From Candidatus Thorarchaeota archaeon (GTDB taxonomy: Archaea; Asgardarchaeota; Thorarchaeia; Thorarchaeales; Thorarchaeaceae): DNA of 60,107 nucleotides. The DNA lies in assembly GCA_004524445.1 (NCBI GenBank), contig SDNP01000018.1:1-60107 (forward strand), given 5' to 3'. The notes beneath the pieces were generated by a model. The model saw only the letters and a list, made by a program, of their open reading frames with translations, did not search any database and had not been told where the DNA came from. Positions 23,221 through 53,335 of this stretch are shown one piece after another (position 1 is the first letter of the stretch; each line of letters opens with the position of its first letter). The translations under genes and the position numbers were made by a program.

Positions 23221-24258
23221 GTGACATATACCTTCATTCGCGGTCCCACCATTATTGGAGGAGAGAGAGTGGAGGAATCACAGGCGAAAGCATCTAAGAA
23301 GGGAGGTCAGCTTAATGCCTCAAGTGAGGAAATTAGATGTACCGAGTGTGGTTGCACCACCGTAGTAGAGGACCTCGCGCGCGGCGAAAAGGTTTGCAGC
23401 AATTGTGGTTTGGTTCTTTCCGATCATCGAATTGATAGTGGAGCTGAATGGAGGGCATTCAGTGCTGAGGAGGCAGACGCTAGAAGTCGAGTTGGTGCGC
23501 CCATGAGGTATACAGTACATGATAAAGGGCTCTCCACTGTAATAGATTGGCGTGATAGAGACAACTCTGGCAGGAAGTTGAGCGCATCACAAAGATCCCA
23601 GATCTATAGACTCCGTAAATGGCAGATACGTTCTCGAGTACATAGCTCAATAGACAGGAACTTGGCTCAGGCAATGTCGGAGCTAGAGAGGTTATCGTCT
23701 CAGCTAGGTATTCCCAATCCGATTCGAGAGATTGCTGCTCTTTTATATAGGAAAGCAATCCAGAAACAACTGGTTAGAGGGCGGTCGATTGAGGCAATGG
23801 TCGCAGCTACGCTTTATGCAGCATGTAGAATTCGTGAGAAACCGCGACCTTTGGACGAGGTTGCTGATGCCACCAGAATTGACAAGAAAAAACTCGGTCA
23901 ATGTTATCGGTTGCTTCTTCGCCACATAAAAGTCAAGATCCCGCTCTCGAATCCTGTGGACTATATCTCAAGATTCTCTACAGAATTGGACTTGTCAAGC
24001 CAGGTACAACTGCGAACCATTGAGATTCTAAAGCGGAGCCGAGATTTGGGACTCACAATCGGAAGAGACCCCCTAGGCCTTGCTGCTGCCGCTATCTATG
24101 TTGCTAGTATCATGTTAGATGATAGAAAAACACAACGGGAGATTGCTCAAGTGGCCCGAGTGACAGAGGTCACTGTTAGAAATCGATACAAAGAGATGGT
24201 AGATAAACTGGGAATAGATACCCTCTCTATGGCGACAAGCAGTTATGACAAGGACTAA
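23221..24258 (+). CDS. tfb: Transcription initiation factor IIB (TFB), paralog 1
   Basis: CxxC...CxxC ribbon, EWRAF, HDKGLST, RLRKWQ, VRGRS, VTEVTVRNRYKE; start possibly the GTG at 23269. Confidence 0.96.
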   Translation: MTYTFIRGPTIIGGERVEESQAKASKKGGQLNASSEEIRCTECGCTTVVEDLARGEKVCSNCGLVLSDHRIDSGAEWRAFSAEEADARSRVGAPMRYTVHDKGLSTVIDWRDRDNSGRKLSASQRSQIYRLRKWQIRSRVHSSIDRNLAQAMSELERLSSQLGIPNPIREIAALLYRKAIQKQLVRGRSIEAMVAATLYAACRIREKPRPLDEVADATRIDKKKLGQCYRLLLRHIKVKIPLSNPVDYISRFSTELDLSSQVQLRTIEILKRSRDLGLTIGRDPLGLAAAAIYVASIMLDDRKTQREIAQVARVTEVTVRNRYKEMVDKLGIDTLSMATSSYDKD

Positions 24259-35929: not shown

Positions 35930-37324
35930 ATGAGTGATCCAATTCCTGTACATGTAGGTCTGATGGGACATATAGATCATGGGAAGACAGAGCTAGCAAG
36001 AGCACTAAGCGAGAAGATTTCGACTGCAGGACTAGACAAGCACCCACAAGCTAAAAGCCGAGGAATAACCATAGACCTGGGTTTCACGATGTTTATGCTA
36101 GATGATTTTCTGGTGACACTTGTTGACGCACCGGGTCATGCAGACCTAATTCGAAGTGTAGTGGCTGGAGCGGGAATAATTGATGCTGCAATAGTTGTGG
36201 TTGCGGCGGACAAAGGGCCGGAAATACAAACTGGAGAACATATTATCGTTCTTGATGCCGTCGGTGTAGAAACAATAATTCCAGTAATAACAAAGATAGA
36301 TCTCGTTGGTGATGACCGCATCAAAGATGTTGAGAAGAAACTTCGTTCATTGATGAGGAGTACAGGATATGGCGAATTCCCAATCGTTTGCGTTTCAGCT
36401 AAGACGGGGGAGGGAATTGATGAACTGAAAGAAACGCTAAAGGGAGTGCTGCAGCCGAGCAAACGGAAAAAAGATGCTGACTTTATGATGCCTATTGATC
36501 ACGCATTCCCTAAGAAGGGGCATGGAACTGTTGTAACGGGCACCGTACAACTAGGGAGAATCAAGTTGGAAGAATACGTTGAGCTTTATCCACAAAGAAA
36601 GAAAGCAAAAGTGCGGTCTATTCAGGTTTTTGGACAACCACGAGAAGAAGCTGTAGCGGGAGACCGTATCGGGTTGAATTTGCCTGAAATCAATGACAAG
36701 ATCGTGAAGCGAGGAAACTACTTAGGTGAACCTGATTCATTGAATACCTCTTCAAATCTCATTGTTGAAATGAATCGGAATCCATTGTACCAAGGACGCA
36801 TAACAAGAAGAATGCTGGTCAACGCAACTGTTGGAATGCCCAGTGTGGTTGCAGAGATTTTGCCCTTCCAAATCGAAAATGGCAGACGGATTGTGCTGGA
36901 AGAAACCGTAGAGAAATCATTCCAGGCAGTCATCCTTCTGTCTGCACCGGTGGTGGTTAGTCCAGAAATGGAGGTGCTTCTGCTCCGTACCGATCTCCCA
37001 CCTACAGCAATGAGAATCATTGGATCAGGGAGAATTGAAGAAACACCGGATTCTGTCACGCTGTTCAAGAAAACAACCTGGCAGGGAAAAGTTTCAAGGG
37101 TTCGAGAAAAGGATGTTCTTGTTGAAGGTATAGCTAACACAAAGCGCTTAGCTGAAAGAATGATAGGTCAAACAGTCAAAACAGAACATGGAACAACGGG
37201 AACTGTGAAAAACGCTTTTGGCACCAGAGGCGTAGTATCAGTTATATTTCAGGATGAAGTGCATGAATCTGATAAAGTGGTCTATGCACGATTCTCAGAG
37301 GAGGAATATTCGTTTGGAGATTGA
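35930..37324 (+). CDS. selB: Selenocysteine-specific elongation factor (archaeal SelB/EFSec)
   Basis: GHIDHGKT, RGITIDLGF, VDAPGHADL, QTGEH, IDHAF, FGTRG; adjacent to Sec genes. Confidence 0.95.
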   Translation: MSDPIPVHVGLMGHIDHGKTELARALSEKISTAGLDKHPQAKSRGITIDLGFTMFMLDDFLVTLVDAPGHADLIRSVVAGAGIIDAAIVVVAADKGPEIQTGEHIIVLDAVGVETIIPVITKIDLVGDDRIKDVEKKLRSLMRSTGYGEFPIVCVSAKTGEGIDELKETLKGVLQPSKRKKDADFMMPIDHAFPKKGHGTVVTGTVQLGRIKLEEYVELYPQRKKAKVRSIQVFGQPREEAVAGDRIGLNLPEINDKIVKRGNYLGEPDSLNTSSNLIVEMNRNPLYQGRITRRMLVNATVGMPSVVAEILPFQIENGRRIVLEETVEKSFQAVILLSAPVVVSPEMEVLLLRTDLPPTAMRIIGSGRIEETPDSVTLFKKTTWQGKVSRVREKDVLVEGIANTKRLAERMIGQTVKTEHGTTGTVKNAFGTRGVVSVIFQDEVHESDKVVYARFSEEEYSFGD

Positions 37325-38630
37325 CAAGCTACTATCTGATTTGATTCCGAAAAATATGATGAGAAGAGGAAGAATAACGCTAGATGAGCAGATTTCTCCC
37401 CTGAAGGATCTGCTGAATCGTAGAAGATTTCCTGACGCTTCGTTTTCGGACAGCCAAATCGAGTTACTCTTGACGCTCTTGTCTGCAATGGATACCGATA
37501 AGGATGCAGAGGCCGCACGTGTCGGGGAACGCGAGGGGCGCGTGGCATCTCCATTGGTCGCCCGTCTAGCCGGAAATTTTGTCCATGGAATTGGTCGGAG
37601 TGGACATATTACTGCACCCCAACCCAAAGCAGCAGGAGCATCCCTGATGCAAAAACTGACCAATCAGATTGCAATTGATGCTATCCAGCGGCTTGGACTG
37701 CCTAACATAAAATGTGGAGCAGTGCTGCCCCTATCCACCGGGATGACCATTGGGTTGGTAGTATCTGCGCTTAGAAGAGAGCATGGTGTAAAACAAATCC
37801 TGTTTCCGAGAATCGATCACAAGTCCCCCACGCGAGGAATCAGCCTAGCTGGTGTAAAGGAGATTACAGTACCAACAGAACTGCAGGGCGACGCAGTTGT
37901 TCCGGATGTGTCCTTTCTTGAGAGAGAGGCAAAGTCAGAAAACAACTGTGCTGTCCTTTCCACCACGACATTTTTTCCGCCACGGGAATCAGACCCGGTG
38001 AAAGAGATTGCGAAGATATGCTCCGAGAGAAGCGTACCTCATATCATTAACAATGCCTATGGAGTTCAGTCTAGAAAAATTATGAAAAGCATAATGTCGG
38101 CGATTGATGCAGGCAGAGTTGATGCTGTATTGCAGAGCACAGATAAGAACTTCCTAGCGCCTGTAGGAGGCGCCATCGTCGTAACTACCCGTGAAAAATT
38201 CTTGGAAGAAATCGTAAAAACCTATGCGGGGAGGGGGACAGCAGCACCGGTCTTTCAAACCCTAGCGGCACTCTTGGCTCTAGGATTGACGAGATACCAA
38301 AAGCTAAGAGATGAACAACAAGAAAATAGGAAGCTCCTAGAGAAGGAGCTTGGCCAATTAGCGGAATCAATTAGTCAACGCATTCTTGATGTTAAGAATC
38401 CGATAGCTTGTGCTATTACAATGGATGATATGGACGTCAAAGAGATTGGCGGCCGTTTATACAATCGGCGTGTAACTGGACCCAGGGCAGTCAAGTCTGG
38501 AACACCTGGGTCATGCATTGACGATTATCCTCATGATTACCTGGTTATGAACGCTGCAATAGGAGCAACTAAATCGGATATTCAAAAAGCAATAAAGAAA
38601 CTCTATAAGGAACTCAAGTCACATAAGTAG
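37314..38630 (+). CDS. spcS: O-phosphoseryl-tRNA(Sec) selenium transferase (SepSecS)
   Basis: GEREGR, HGIGRSG, QPKAAG, IINNAYG, QSTDKNF (PLP Lys), YAGR; probable TTG start overlapping the selB end. Confidence 0.95.
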   Translation: MEIDKLLSDLIPKNMMRRGRITLDEQISPLKDLLNRRRFPDASFSDSQIELLLTLLSAMDTDKDAEAARVGEREGRVASPLVARLAGNFVHGIGRSGHITAPQPKAAGASLMQKLTNQIAIDAIQRLGLPNIKCGAVLPLSTGMTIGLVVSALRREHGVKQILFPRIDHKSPTRGISLAGVKEITVPTELQGDAVVPDVSFLEREAKSENNCAVLSTTTFFPPRESDPVKEIAKICSERSVPHIINNAYGVQSRKIMKSIMSAIDAGRVDAVLQSTDKNFLAPVGGAIVVTTREKFLEEIVKTYAGRGTAAPVFQTLAALLALGLTRYQKLRDEQQENRKLLEKELGQLAESISQRILDVKNPIACAITMDDMDVKEIGGRLYNRRVTGPRAVKSGTPGSCIDDYPHDYLVMNAAIGATKSDIQKAIKKLYKELKSHK

Positions 38631-38655
38631 AACGCCCAAAGGGAGGGTTCTCTTC

Positions 38656-39306
38656 ATGAAAGAGGACAAATTTGACCACGAAGCAAAAAGGAAACTGACC
38701 TTCGAGAAGCCCGAACCGCCGGTTGCATTCAGGATTGCATGGTATGTTATGGCATCTCAGCCGGGGGTTTATCTCACTGATTATGGGGAGGCAGAGGCTC
38801 AAGACTTCGAAGGTCATGCCTCATTCTCTGCCAAATACAACGAGTCCAAGGTAGTCCTAGAATTAGAAGTCCAAGAGAATGCAAGTAGAATTGAGATGAG
38901 CATTCAAGGCGATAATGAAGTTGACATAAACGCACTTGGAGATGAGCTAATTCAAAGACTGGAAACATCAATCGAGAAATATCTCTCTCTAACATCTGAG
39001 GCGGAATCCAAAGCTCGGAGAGCTTTGGTAGCAAAAACATGTTGGGACAGGCTAGTATACTACATCTTTGAGAAGAAACCCTTGTCGGATGTATATTACA
39101 TGCTAGCACATGGGAGGGAGATGATGATTAAGGCAACCGAGGGAGAAGCTGTGGAGCCATTGACGCTGAGTACCAGTGCATGGCTGTCTAGATTCGATAG
39201 CCTTTCCAGAGAGGAGCCAACGCCTACCGATTTAGCCTCGGGTCTGGCCAAGAAGTCTATTGAATGGAAAAAGGCAACCCATATGGTTATCGAGAAATAT
39301 CTTTAG
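38656..39306 (+). CDS. Hypothetical protein inside the Sec cluster
   Basis: 216-aa ORF with GGAGG upstream; alpha/beta N-terminal half, helical C-terminal half. Confidence 0.8.
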   Translation: MKEDKFDHEAKRKLTFEKPEPPVAFRIAWYVMASQPGVYLTDYGEAEAQDFEGHASFSAKYNESKVVLELEVQENASRIEMSIQGDNEVDINALGDELIQRLETSIEKYLSLTSEAESKARRALVAKTCWDRLVYYIFEKKPLSDVYYMLAHGREMMIKATEGEAVEPLTLSTSAWLSRFDSLSREEPTPTDLASGLAKKSIEWKKATHMVIEKYL

Positions 39307-39355
39307 ATTGGGCATTTCTATAGCCTTAAGTCCAAAATAGGTTGATTTAGCATAG

Positions 39356-39446
39356 GGCTCCCTATAGGGTCGGTGGTCCGGCTCCGTGGGCTTCAAACCC
39401 ATGATCGCGAAAGGGATTAGAGTTCGATTCTCTTGGGGAGCCGCCA
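39356..39446 (+). tRNA. selC: tRNA-Sec (UCA)
   Basis: 9-bp acceptor GGCTCCCTA/TGGGGAGCC, 7-bp D stem with TGGT loop, anticodon loop CTTCAAA, long variable arm, 4-bp T stem AGAG/CTCT, G73 and encoded CCA. Confidence 0.96.
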
Positions 39447-40196
39447 TCATTCTTCTAATAGAGATTCTAGCTCATTGCTTAGAACATCAAGCGCTTCTTT
39501 CATGTTCCAGCCCTCTCTATTGGCCCTTCCCACAACAGCTCTCCGAATATCAGACACTATGGAAACGCTCCGAAGGTCTTTATGCTTGGTAAGAAAATCT
39601 GCTACGAAATCCCTAGTAGCAACATCTATTGGATTAGCGGTCTTTTCATCGGGGGGAGGAAACTTCACTGGCTCAAGAAACGCAAGCCTATTTACAATCT
39701 CTTTTGCTGCGCTTGAAACATTATTTTTCGCCATATCAACTTCGCGTATTGGTTCATCCCACGCATATTTGCTACCAGGCATATCAAAACGAGCATTGAT
39801 TCGTCGAATGACCTTTTGTGGAATTTCGGAGTCCCGTTGTTCATTCCATCTGAGTGAGTCAGATATGTCAGTGCTTACGTAAACGACAGCAAAGGCACAA
39901 TGAAACTCCTGAGCGAGTTCAAACAATTCATGTCGCATGCTATTGTAATAATTTGTGTCATCATGAATAACCGAGAATTCCAGTTTGAGTTGCTCACATG
40001 TTTTTTGTAGAGCTTTCTCTCGTACTTGCTTCTCTTTCTGCGGCTCAAAATTTGCATAGTATGCCTGATTTCTCCAATCATCAGTACTGATAATGACCAC
40101 CTTTGATTCCTTTGGAGTAGCGTCAGCTATTGCATGTGCTAACGTTGTCTTGCCGGAAGCTGGGAGCCCACATAGGGCAAGGAGAAATTGCTGCAT
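39447..40196 (-). CDS. pstK: O-phosphoseryl-tRNA(Sec) kinase (PSTK)
   Basis: GLPASGKTT, DDTNYYNSMR, RWNEQR, KYAWDEP; abuts tRNA-Sec. Confidence 0.92.
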   Translation of the reverse strand: MQQFLLALCGLPASGKTTLAHAIADATPKESKVVIISTDDWRNQAYYANFEPQKEKQVREKALQKTCEQLKLEFSVIHDDTNYYNSMRHELFELAQEFHCAFAVVYVSTDISDSLRWNEQRDSEIPQKVIRRINARFDMPGSKYAWDEPIREVDMAKNNVSSAAKEIVNRLAFLEPVKFPPPDEKTANPIDVATRDFVADFLTKHKDLRSVSIVSDIRRAVVGRANREGWNMKEALDVLSNELESLLEE

Positions 40197-40262: not shown

Positions 40263-41198
40263 TCATGGCTCCATTGTAATGTTCAGGGAGTTCACAAGCT
40301 CCTTGTATCGGTTTCTAACCGTTACTTCAGTCACATTAGATGCCTTTGCTATCTCTCTTTGCGTTCTGCGGTCGTTCTCCAAAATGCCCGCAATATAAAG
40401 AGATGCTGCTGCAAGACCACCAGGATCCTTTCCAGCTGTTAGTCCTTCAGCCCTGGCTTCTTCGATTATTGATGTAGCTCTTTGTACTGCACGGCCGGTC
40501 ATATTTAAATCGCCAGAAATCCGCGGCATTAAATCGTTAGGAGATGGCAATGGAACTTTGACATTCACATATCGCAATATCTGTCGTACAGAATGAGCCA
40601 GTTCCTTTCTCTTGATTCTAGTTTCTGTTGTCATCTCGTCTAACTGACGTGGAATTCTATGGATTCTGCATGAGAGGTATAATGAGGCTGCAATCATTCC
40701 TTCAATACTGCGACCTCGGACAAGGCGTTTGTCCAGAGCCTTTCGGTAGATTAGTGCCGCCGTTTCCTTGCAGTCCCGTGGTACACCAAGCTGTGAACCA
40801 AGACGCTCCAGTTCGTTCATAGCAATTGATAGATTCCTATGCTTTGATCCATGAGCCATACTGCGGATTTGCCATTTCCTCATTCGGTAAATGGCCGCTC
40901 GGCGACTTCCTTTGATGGAACGACCGTTCGCATCACGATTGCCCCAGCTAATTGTCGTTGCCAGACCCTTGTCGGCTATCATCAATGTAGCCGGAGCGCC
41001 AGTTCGTGCACGAGCGTTTCGTTCTTCAGCGGTGAAGGCTCGCCATTCCGGACCGGTGTCCATTTCATGGTCACTAGCAACGCAACCACAGGAAGTACAA
41101 ACCCGTTCACCTCTCTTAGAATCCTCGATAAAATCAGTCCCGCCACACAATGAGCACACATGTCGGTTTTTCGCTTGATTTTCTGTCTTCTTTGCCAT
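40263..41198 (-). CDS. tfb: TFB paralog 2
   Basis: Zn ribbon, GPEWRAF, DKGLAT, RMRKWQ, VRGRS, VTEVTVRNRYKE. Confidence 0.95.
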   Translation of the reverse strand: MAKKTENQAKNRHVCSLCGGTDFIEDSKRGERVCTSCGCVASDHEMDTGPEWRAFTAEERNARARTGAPATLMIADKGLATTISWGNRDANGRSIKGSRRAAIYRMRKWQIRSMAHGSKHRNLSIAMNELERLGSQLGVPRDCKETAALIYRKALDKRLVRGRSIEGMIAASLYLSCRIHRIPRQLDEMTTETRIKRKELAHSVRQILRYVNVKVPLPSPNDLMPRISGDLNMTGRAVQRATSIIEEARAEGLTAGKDPGGLAAASLYIAGILENDRRTQREIAKASNVTEVTVRNRYKELVNSLNITMEP

Positions 41199-41267
41199 TA
41201 TTGAATACAAGCTCCATCTTGCTCTCAGTGATTTGGGCGTGCTGCTACTGCATTATGAGTAGAGGGG

Positions 41268-41488: not shown

Positions 41489-42433
41489 TTATGGTCGGAT
41501 TGTAATTTTCAGATTGGTAGCAAGATCTTTGTATCGATTTCTGACTGTGACTTCTGTTACATTCGAAGCTTCAGCTATCTCTCTCTGAGTTCGCCTATCA
41601 CCAGTGATGATTCCTGCGATATACAGAGCAGCGGCCGCCAAACCACCAGGATCCTTGCCAGCTGTGATCCCCTTCTCACGTGCATCATTGATTATCTTCA
41701 TTGCAGTTTGAACAGTAGTACCTTCTAATTTCAAGTCAGCAGATATGCGCGGCATAAGATCATTTGCTGAGGGGATAGGAACTTTCACTTTGACATATCT
41801 CAAAACAAGCCGAACACATTGCCCCAATTCTTTCCGATTCACTCTCGCTTCTTCAACTATCTCATCCAATTGTCGAGGAATTCTGTGGATTCTGCATGAG
41901 AGGTACACAGAGGAGGCAATCATGCCTTCAATGCTTCGTCCTCGCACAAGACGCTTGTTCAGAGCTCTTCGATAAATCAGGGCAGCAGTCTCCTTGGCTT
42001 CTTGAGGAACACCAAGCTGTGAGGTCAACCGATCCAGTTCGTTCATAGCGATGGAAAGATTACGATGCTGCGAGCTATGAGCCAATGTACGGATCTGCCA
42101 TTTTCTCATGCGATAAAGGGCAGCTCGTTTACTACCAGAAATAGCTCTTCCGTTTGCATCTCTATCACTCCAACTAATAGTCGTGGACAGCCCTTTGTCT
42201 GCCATTGTTAGTGTCATGGGAGCACCAGTTCTGGCACGGGAATTTCGCTCTTCTGCTGTAAATGCTCGCCATTCCGGACCAGAATCAACATGCCGCTCGG
42301 TAAGGACACATCCGCAAGATGTGCATATCCGTTCCCCGCGAGCTTCATCCTCATAGAATTCATCTTTTCCGCAGATGGAGCAAACAACATTGCTCTCCTG
42401 TTTATCACCAGTTGTACGAATGGGTTTGGCCAT
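41489..42433 (-). CDS. tfb: TFB paralog 3 (tandem duplicate of paralog 2)
   Basis: Same motifs; long near-identical stretches shared with 40263..41198. Confidence 0.95.
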   Translation of the reverse strand: MAKPIRTTGDKQESNVVCSICGKDEFYEDEARGERICTSCGCVLTERHVDSGPEWRAFTAEERNSRARTGAPMTLTMADKGLSTTISWSDRDANGRAISGSKRAALYRMRKWQIRTLAHSSQHRNLSIAMNELDRLTSQLGVPQEAKETAALIYRRALNKRLVRGRSIEGMIASSVYLSCRIHRIPRQLDEIVEEARVNRKELGQCVRLVLRYVKVKVPIPSANDLMPRISADLKLEGTTVQTAMKIINDAREKGITAGKDPGGLAAAALYIAGIITGDRRTQREIAEASNVTEVTVRNRYKDLATNLKITIRP

Positions 42434-42893
42434 GTTTCTACACCTGCATCATGCAGCGGTCCCGTTCTCGATGAATTGAAGGCTATAAACGGCGTAGATA
42501 CGGAACTAGTAACGATTCGTGTTCTTTCGCCGAGTTTTCTCCGCATATAAGTGTACGCCTGAGTCTATGTTGAATTCCCTCAAAAGAATTGCAACTCCAA
42601 AGAAGGAGGTTTCAGACAACATTAGGCGTAGCTTGTGAGATACAGCATAAAAAGTCCAGTCCAAGAGGTTAGAAAAACAAAAGGGTTCAGGACAGTTCTA
42701 GGGAACTTGGACAAAGTTCGACATTCAGTACATAGTTGATAGAAGAGTAATACGTCTGAATTGTGGTGTCAAAATACTCTGGCCATCCATAATCTTCCGA
42801 GGTCATCTCAAGATCTTCAAGTAGTCCAACCCAGTGCCGTTTTTGGGAAACAATACTCCTCTATCCAAGATTGTCCAACTTACAATAAATGGT

Positions 42894-42999
42894 AGGCAGG
42901 CGCTCACCAGCGAAAGGAAGTCCAGCTGTGTAGGGGCAGCTGGCACAGGGAGATGAATTTGAACGCCCACCTCTAATTTGCATATCCCCTACATGATAT
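42894..42999 (-). ncRNA. Putative structured RNA element with loop-loop pairing
   Basis: 13-bp outer stem whose 3 mismatches are all G-U on the minus strand, 7-bp inner hairpin, loop CCCCUACA complementary to upstream UGUAGGGG. Confidence 0.5.
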
Positions 43000-43002
43000 C
43001 GA

Positions 43003-43569
43003 TTAGTCTAGGCAGTTGATGTTTTTGACCACGTCTTCAGGAATGATACGGATGTTCTCATAGTATGCATTACCATTGTCCAGTTCCGTTTTTGACATGG
43101 CAATCTTGATCATCCCGTTGCTCTTACCCAGAAGATAGCCTGAAAGGAATTGTAAAGGAACCTCCATTTCATCAGCTTCTTCTTTGGTCATGGCACAGCA
43201 TTCAACCCCTGGACTCTCAAAAGTTACTTCCACAATGTCATGGTCATCGCAGAACTCCTCCCGCGTGAGCTGTTTTGTTTCCTTGAGATTCGTTTTTCCT
43301 GCGAGCCGATGCACCCTTGATCCATCATAATGGAATGGGTCATCTCTAAGTTTATGAACGCTGGGAACAAGATAGAGCGATTTCTCATTGTAGCTTTCAA
43401 CCTTGTCACCACTATCTAGAAATTTCTTCTCACTACTCTCTCCAACCATGTATCTAACGTGGTAGACTTTTGCATCCATCTTCTTTTCTTCATCGTCTTC
43501 ACGTACTGTTACTCTGGTATCATGCCAGAAAACTAAGGGCGCGAATGGATTGTTCGGTATGCTAGACAT
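43003..43569 (-). CDS. Hypothetical protein, possible tandem small beta-barrel (Sm/SH3-like)
   Basis: IVEVTF...SGYLL....MIKIA...IIPEDVVKNI pattern, with a weaker N-terminal copy (LVFWHD...YLVP). Confidence 0.65.
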   Translation of the reverse strand: MSSIPNNPFAPLVFWHDTRVTVREDDEEKKMDAKVYHVRYMVGESSEKKFLDSGDKVESYNEKSLYLVPSVHKLRDDPFHYDGSRVHRLAGKTNLKETKQLTREEFCDDHDIVEVTFESPGVECCAMTKEEADEMEVPLQFLSGYLLGKSNGMIKIAMSKTELDNGNAYYENIRIIPEDVVKNINCLD

Positions 43570-52983: not shown

Positions 52984-53335
52984 AAGTGGCTCTGGTACAT
53001 AGAGTAACCCTGATTCTGTTCCACTCCCAGATGTCACCATCAAGGAGTCTTGCGACATCAGACTAAGCTCCCTACCCTAGGCCTCAGGTCGGCACATCGT
53101 CAGCCTATTCTTGGGATTGCTACCCAGTGATGAGCCGTTTCATCCGAACCAGACTAATCCTCAACAGGTTATTTCCTGCATCATCGTCAAATCCAGTCTG
53201 GGGGTGTCGTTTCTGTTCTCAGAGCGAGGTTCTAACCTCCCTGTTCACACAGGACTGGCACCGACATGGAGTCAGGAGTTTCCTCAGCACCCACTTGGAG
53301 TACCGTCAGTCGCGCTTACACTCCAGAGCCAACTT
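52984..53335 (-). ncRNA. rnpB: RNase P RNA (archaeal, probably type A)
   Basis: Minus strand: GAGGAAACTCC (CR-I), ACAGAAA (CR-II), TGAAAC (CR-III), AACAGAATCAGGGTTA (CR-V); terminal helix TGGCTCTGG/CCAGAGCCA; P8-like CCTGT-GTGA-ACAGG. Confidence 0.93.

Follow-up and report, generated by a model that had tools for sequence, protein, structure and literature searches.

A clade-restricted structured RNA in a Thorarchaeota 3′ UTR and its possible pairing with the start region of a TFB mRNA

The 3′ untranslated region (UTR) of a Thorarchaeota gene encoding a 188-aa Cys/His protein carries a 79-nt core element that is a real, previously undescribed folded RNA, confined to one Thorarchaeota clade. 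The element lies on the minus strand of the window, which is the whole stretch of 60,107 nucleotides of Candidatus Thorarchaeota DNA that was analysed. A sequence-only reading of this DNA had proposed a novel minus-strand structured RNA in the 3′ UTR of the open reading frame (ORF) at 43003–43569, and the comparative data support that proposal: both helices covary and no Rfam family corresponds to them. The function of the element can be named with less confidence. The explanation that we tentatively prefer, at somewhat less than even confidence, is that it serves as a 3′-UTR-borne antisense regulator of the translation of the main TFB, since its most conserved single strand is complementary to the start region of that mRNA. 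TFB brings RNA polymerase to every promoter. Almost nothing is known, to our knowledge, about regulatory RNAs in Asgard archaea, for which the element provides a covariation-supported motif absent from Rfam together with a concrete target prediction in TFB.

Fold, homologues, and conserved anatomy

The features referred to throughout are the following (all on the minus strand of the window).

42894..42972 (−): core conserved RNA element, 79 nt; covariance-model match of 94 bits, E = 5e-17, the only match in the genome
42960..42972 (−): 5′ strand of helix P1, pairing with 42894–42906; double changes in 9 of the 11 P1 pairs in the model
42894..42906 (−): 3′ strand of P1, assigned from RNAfold and covariation
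42943..42964 (−): conserved pyrimidine-rich, anti-Shine-Dalgarno-like strand with the core UCAUCUCCCUG; the core is unpaired and the sequence invariant
42922..42943 (−): P3 hairpin with a 7-bp stem (42943–42937/42928–42922); five of the seven pairs show double changes
42929–42936 (−): P3 loop, 8 nt, CCCCUACA, conserved across homologues
42907..42921 (−): J3/1, a U/C-rich conserved single strand, lost in one g2 subclade
42982..42999 (−): hairpin 1, with a 5-bp stem (42999–42995/42986–42982) and an 8-nt loop (42994–42987); genus-specific
43003..43569 (−): gene for the 188-aa Cys/His protein (ORF), of which the element is the 3′ UTR
42883..42893 (−): T-rich tract following P1, where the transcript presumably ends; interrupted here by a repeat insertion

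When the minus strand is folded with RNAfold, exactly the arrangement described by the sequence-only reading is obtained, with a free energy of −38.2 kcal/mol. Hairpin 1 begins 3 nt past the stop codon of the 188-aa ORF (TAA at 43005–43003), and P1 is a 13-bp helix whose sole non-Watson-Crick pairs are three G-U pairs and which encloses a pyrimidine-rich internal loop and P3. The hairpins, the 13-bp stem, its three G-U pairs, and the distance from the stop codon, all taken originally from inspection of the letters, were each confirmed on this strand. The folding energy itself is unremarkable (z = −1.65; 10 of 200 shuffles fold equally well), and the plus strand folds no better than its shuffles (z = 0.12). 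With a z of only −1.65, thermodynamics alone is insufficient, and it is the comparative evidence that lifts the element above chance.

A first covariance model was built from the eight first-found genomes and searched across 86 genomes of the Thorarchaeota family. It returned exactly one match per genome in 49 of them, distributed over five of the 16 genera, namely g1, g8, g7 (all seven genomes), g5 (25 of 28), and g2 (14 of 17), and none in the eleven other genera. A second model, built from all 49 homologues, gave no matches when 125 further Asgard genomes from outside the family were sampled. In the eight first-found genomes, the 3′ flank of the 188-aa gene carries the element with an outer helix that differs but is complementary. 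This position is kept almost without exception: the element starts 17–45 nt past the stop codon of the 188-aa gene in 48 of the 49 cases, and the remaining one is a degenerate copy whose 5′ half has been replaced.

Covariation was assessed on the 48 distinct homologues. Here, 92% of the cells assigned to helices are paired, compared with 83% in shuffles and 33–41% when the partners are slid against each other. Double changes are found in 14 of the 18 pairs, and compensatory cells number 109 where 29 are expected. G-U pairs make up about 11% of the cells in the homologue alignment; as these would be A-C mismatches on the opposite strand, the functional strand is that of the 188-aa gene.

The invariant parts of the element are unpaired. 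They comprise the 5′ strand of the internal loop, the P3 loop, and, in most clades, the U/C-rich 3′ joining strand. Most conserved among the unpaired segments is the 5′ internal-loop strand, with the core UCAUCUCC(C/U)UG, and the P3 loop reads CCCC(U/C)ACA in nearly all homologues. An additional helix, P2, forms in g5 and g2, where it presents UCUCC as a loop; it is considered optional because only two invariant pairs are possible in this genome.

Hairpin 1 is a genus-level add-on and not a defining feature of the family. It occurs in this genome and in its congener G001 (together genus g1), where the stem contains one compensatory change. The sequence-only reading had noted that the 8-nt P3 loop is the exact complement of a segment in hairpin 1, which holds letter by letter: positions 42936–42929 match 42993–42986, of which seven belong to the loop of hairpin 1 and one is the first base of the 3′ stem strand. 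The same exact 8-nt complement is present in G001, and one g7 genome has an unstructured 7-nt complement of the P3 loop at the same offset. Nothing comparable to hairpin 1 or to its loop complement was seen in the remaining 46 of the 49 homologues. The proposed kissing loop or pseudoknot thus survives as an exact complementarity in g1 and falls as a conserved or covarying pairing; being limited to g1, it is not a feature of the family. An exact 8-mer complement of the P3 loop arose in the 30-nt spacer in 77 of 200,000 shuffles of matched composition (about 4e-4 by chance), and at this improbability the match is probably meaningful within genus g1. The g1 complement also suggests that the P3 loop is free to form base pairs.

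Gene neighbourhood and excluded identities

The whole family carries the 188-aa gene, and every homologue of its product is a hypothetical protein from Thorarchaeota. Across the genera with invariant element loops, the protein is only 52–62% identical. Its invariant residues are H72, H80, C107, H110, E114, C124, C125, and C186; two of the cysteines form a CC pair, and the last lies three residues from the C-terminus. The AlphaFold2 model is all-beta (pLDDT 90). The protein has no Pfam family, and no assignment was obtained from Foldseek against the PDB, VIA-align wide, or the ESM Atlas. Its C-terminal 80 residues are modelled as a small beta-barrel that comes closest, among solved structures, to Hfq and Lsm (Z about 4, rmsd 2 Å over 53 residues). 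The 188-aa product is possibly a metal-binding protein of new fold.

Two TFB paralogues follow downstream of the element on the minus strand (41489–42433 and 40263–41210), and a third is located at 23299–24222 on the plus strand of the 60-kb window. The genome as a whole encodes five TFB-like genes, three of them in this one window. A selenocysteine cluster at 37254–40196, 3 kb from the element, contains SepSecS, an unknown 216-aa ORF, tRNA-Sec, and PSTK (Pfam, Rfam, and ARAGORN). The only Rfam matches in the window are RNase P RNA (52993–53325) and tRNA-Sec.

Directly 3′ of P1, most homologues in g1, g5, and g7 have a C-rich and then a T-rich tract. After it comes a BRE/TATA promoter that belongs to a TFB paralogue; every genus has a TFB gene downstream. 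For the element itself, no BRE/TATA-like motif was found at a suitable distance, with the spacer to the 188-aa gene as short as 17 nt. In the genera without the element, a plain GC hairpin and a T-run occupy the same site after the 188-aa gene. In one genus (L022:~900-960, G013:C63), the hairpin after this gene resembles a tRNA T-arm with a GGTTCGAGTCC loop and is possibly a fragment of a tRNA or what is left of an attachment site.

In this genome, the T-tract between the element and the TFB promoter holds a repeat of ~210 nt with inverted ends (window 42682–42893, minus strand), which has AAGTTGGACAA near its start and TTGTCCAAGTT near its end and which resembles a MITE because of these inverted ends. 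The genome contains seven copies, 71–88% identical to the copy at 42682–42893, and many matches of 65–80 nt are found in most genera of the family. The congener G001 has no insertion at this position.

In line with the sequence-only reading, the element corresponds to no known family: searches for SECIS, tRNA, C/D, H/ACA, and Rfam models were all negative. Rfam 15 gave no hit at the site at gathering score and none that was meaningful at E values up to 10, nor did it match the element in seven homologous loci. ARAGORN and Rfam find only tRNA-Sec (at 39356) as tRNA in the window. A C/D box sRNA was rejected, as the C box (RUGAUGA) and the D box (CUGA) do not occur at conserved minus-strand positions and no Rfam snoRNA scored above threshold. 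An H/ACA sRNA was rejected as well: the bases after P1 vary (ACC, GAC, CGC, AAC) and include no ACA triplet, the distance from pocket to end is 28 nt where about 14 nt is expected, and the upper stem has no G-A pairs. A 55-aa ORF (42803–42970) overlaps the element; a coding function was dismissed because the indels among homologues are not multiples of three and the pair changes are compensatory. Finally, 16S rRNA has a 7-nt match to the P3 loop (GUAGGGG, in the helix 23 region). Pairing at this site was rejected because half of the homologues have C in place of U, which would break a pairing with the invariant rRNA.

Complementarity to the start region of the main TFB mRNA

The genome was searched for complements of the conserved single strands of the element. 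An exact 11-mer complement of the 5′ internal-loop strand was found on the start codon of the fifth TFB gene, located on a different contig (G000:C57:24220-25182). This TFB is the most conserved paralogue of the family, with 80–84% identity across all 16 genera, and its start region, which reads roughly GCAGGGAGAUGAUUGGAC, is nearly invariant, including synonymous sites. The predicted duplex between positions 42943–42964 of the element and G000:C57:25172-25193 consists of 14 bp, a 2-nt bulge, and 6 bp, with an energy of −32.1 kcal/mol. A seeded RNAduplex scan across the 5.6-Mb genome, both strands included, ranks it best apart from the antisense of the locus itself, and it is the sole top-ranking site that lies on a start codon. 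Important for reading this rank is that the 22-nt segment was delimited only after the match had been seen; for a 21-nt segment chosen beforehand, the TFB site comes third (−28.5 kcal/mol, compared with −29.2 and −28.8 for the first two).

The strength of the complementarity differs among the clades. Comparison with shuffled strands in the 37 genomes for which both sequences were available gives a mean z of −5.7 in g1, −4.1 in g5, −3.5 in g7, −1.6 in g2, and −1.4 in g8; the complementarity is thus weak in g2 and g8, although both retain the element. On cofolding, the heteroduplex is favoured in g1, g5, and g7, with a ddG of −9 to −12 kcal/mol, whereas the ddG is 0 in g2. When matches with at most three mismatches were collected in five g5 genomes, the TFB start was the one recurrent locus among the 6–15 matches per genome. 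As a control, the 3′ UTRs of the 188-aa gene from genera without the element were examined and showed no complementarity to TFB (z −1.6 to +1.1).

Compensation in trans is seen in the main g2 type, where CAUGGAG in TFB goes with CUCCAUG in the element, while the other clades combine CAGGGAG with CUCCCUG. At this same position most g5 genomes have a U-U mismatch inside the duplex, and trans covariation is scant apart from the one clade. The outer 5–6 bp of the duplex furthermore require that the top of P1 be opened. The TFB start region is equally conserved in the 11 genera without the element and must therefore be constrained for other reasons. Scanning the genome with the P3 loop and with J3/1 turned up no target site that stood out. 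Their recurrent best match, in the TFB coding region at about +215 to +225, has ordinary energies and was set aside as an effect of composition because it coincides with a G-rich run of Arg-Val-Gly-Gly-Pro codons.

A separate observation concerns the locus of the main TFB (L072; G000:C57:24220-25260, minus strand). Its first six codons and the preceding 10 nt are nearly invariant, as nucleotides, in all 16 genera, and a covarying 5′-UTR hairpin, the loop of which is C-rich in several genera, precedes the start. Conservation and hairpin together suggest that the TFB start may be controlled at the RNA level even where the element is lacking.

The 5′ strand of the element also resembles the 3′ tail of 16S rRNA, and in g5 it differs at one base from GAUCACCUCCU, which we take to be the general archaeal sequence. 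The comparison with an anti-Shine-Dalgarno sequence rests in addition on GGUGA-type motifs in front of local genes. The TFB start region, in turn, looks like a Shine-Dalgarno sequence in which the AUG is embedded. The 16S rRNA gene of this genome (G000:C9:95370-97140) runs to the end of its contig and departs from the usual sequence past AAGTCGTAAC, which may reflect an intron or an assembly break.

Possible roles and related systems

An antisense function would account for the most conserved strand in the following way. The element is a lineage-specific, single-copy RNA domain at the end of the mRNA of the Thorarchaeota-only 188-aa gene. The GC-rich, covarying 13-bp P1 closes this domain, with the presumed T-rich termination tract next to it, and the 7-bp P3 displays an invariant C-rich loop; the invariant strand on the 5′ side of the internal loop would act as the seed. 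The RNA could act within the mRNA or as a processed, stable 3′ fragment of ~80–110 nt. The predicted partner of the seed is the stretch from about −11 to +11 on the mRNA encoding the most conserved TFB paralogue; this pairing would cover the start codon and thereby block or otherwise change translation initiation. In g1, hairpin 1 may be an added intramolecular partner that masks or positions the P3 loop. We infer that the RNA is expressed and stable, that the pairing takes place in the cell, and in which direction the effect goes.

The gene context is of interest here, as the element adjoins two other TFB paralogues. The sequence-only reading had linked it in cis, as one of several options, to this downstream pair. 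That link was not borne out, whereas a connection in trans emerged, through complementarity to the start of a different and more conserved TFB. Taken further, transcription of the locus could silence the principal TFB and shift the cell toward the others, which would amount to an RNA-based choice between general transcription factors in an Asgard archaeon; we regard this extension as unlikely on present evidence. If the pairing with the TFB mRNA does take place, it would be one of the rare instances in which an archaeal basal transcription factor is controlled post-transcriptionally, and would help explain why five TFB paralogues are retained. Should the pairing turn out not to exist, databases would still gain a clean new RNA family, and the clade a marker.

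Nearly as likely as the antisense regulator, at roughly one chance in three, is a role confined to the 188-aa mRNA. Here, the element would be a cis-acting 3′-end domain for termination or stability and a platform for a protein, such as an Lsm/SmAP protein or, in a form of autoregulation, the Cys/His protein that the mRNA encodes, and would have no target in trans. The strict linkage to one gene, directly after its stop codon, fits this explanation, and the plain hairpin and T-run found at this site in the other genera indicate that the position of the element is an elaborated terminator site. The U/C-rich single strands resemble Sm-type binding sites and the C-terminal barrel of the encoded protein is nearest to the Hfq/Lsm folds, but small barrels occur widely, and the score of this similarity does not come near a meaningful level. 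The retention of the element in g2 without extended TFB complementarity, and its weak complementarity in g8, likewise speak for a cis role, as does the conservation of the P3 loop and J3/1, for which the antisense model has no explanation. On the other hand, a terminator or stability hairpin needs no invariant loops, and it would be left unexplained why the best genome-wide partner of the invariant strand is the TFB start codon. It is very improbable that the element has no specific function and is simply an elaborate terminator hairpin inherited within the clade. Its unexceptional folding energy and its restriction to five related genera would agree with this, but the loops are invariant across genera whose flanking protein has diverged and the helix substitutions are compensatory, which together point to selection on both structure and loop sequence.

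Also very improbable is a tertiary-folded sensor or riboswitch-like switch, in which the kissing loop or pseudoknot between hairpin 1 and P3 would control read-through into the TFB pair. The exact 8-nt complement, with its low chance expectation, the compensatory change in G001, the 7-nt complement in one g7 genome, and the arrangement of T-tract and downstream TFB gene in all genera can be cited in its favour. Against it, nearly all homologues lack hairpin 1, some with a spacer of only 17 nt, and Rfam contains no matching riboswitch; we know of no ligand pocket that is similar to the pyrimidine-rich loops. Moreover, the downstream TFB has its own BRE/TATA promoter after the T-rich tract, and the element is undecayed even though the 210-nt mobile repeat separates it from that promoter, which speaks against the suggestion of a cis switch upstream of the TFB pair. 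That the element is a SECIS or otherwise belongs to the selenocysteine system is extremely unlikely, despite the Sec biosynthesis cluster (SepSecS, tRNA-Sec, and PSTK) 3 kb away and the location of archaeal SECIS elements in 3′ UTRs (PMC11227280). The 188-aa ORF contains no in-frame TGA, its 18 homologues align over the full length without stops, and reading TGA as U merely adds codons upstream of stops. The 5′ strand has neither a UGA nor the (A/G)UGA...(G/A)A core of Asgard elements, the consensus shows no GAA_A bulge below three G-C pairs as in the euryarchaeal type, and there is one copy per genome and not one per selenoprotein gene. The element does share with the eukaryote-like SECIS of Asgard archaea (PMC11227280; PMC4989117) the succession of stem, internal loop, stem, and apical loop in a 3′ UTR of a genome that encodes the Sec machinery; in contrast to them it has no kink-turn quartet and no upstream UGA, it is single-copy, and its loops are pyrimidine-rich instead of A-rich.

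Among known systems, the antisense reading finds its closest counterparts in bacterial base-pairing sRNAs derived from 3′ UTRs, such as GlnZ from the glnA 3′ UTR (PMC9731577). These are alike in that they form the end of an mRNA with which they share the terminator, possess a conserved single-stranded seed, and target, in the case of the element by prediction, the translation start of an mRNA encoded elsewhere. The element differs in being archaeal (Asgard) and without Hfq, in that its processing and expression are predictions here, and in that its seed lies inside a closed internal loop and not at a free 5′ end. The position of 48 of the 49 homologues at 17–45 nt past the stop codon, mostly with the T-rich tract as presumed transcript end next to them, is that of a 3′-UTR-borne base-pairing sRNA, and the element possibly belongs to this class, an assignment drawn from sequence features that we judge to have slightly less than even chances of being correct.

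A further parallel exists with the C-rich (UCCC-motif) sRNAs RsaE/RoxS of Firmicutes, which bind G-rich ribosome-binding sites (PMC9266662). Like these, the element has C-rich unpaired motifs that resemble the 3′ tail of 16S rRNA, and it is complementary to a purine-rich start region. There is no homology between them, and the element has a single well-matched candidate target instead of a regulon and comes from another domain of life. Archaeal oligo-T terminators with a preceding hairpin are similar as well, in that the gene ends in a GC-rich helix with a T-rich tract behind it; the element, in contrast, carries within this helix a conserved insert of 50 nt with invariant loops.
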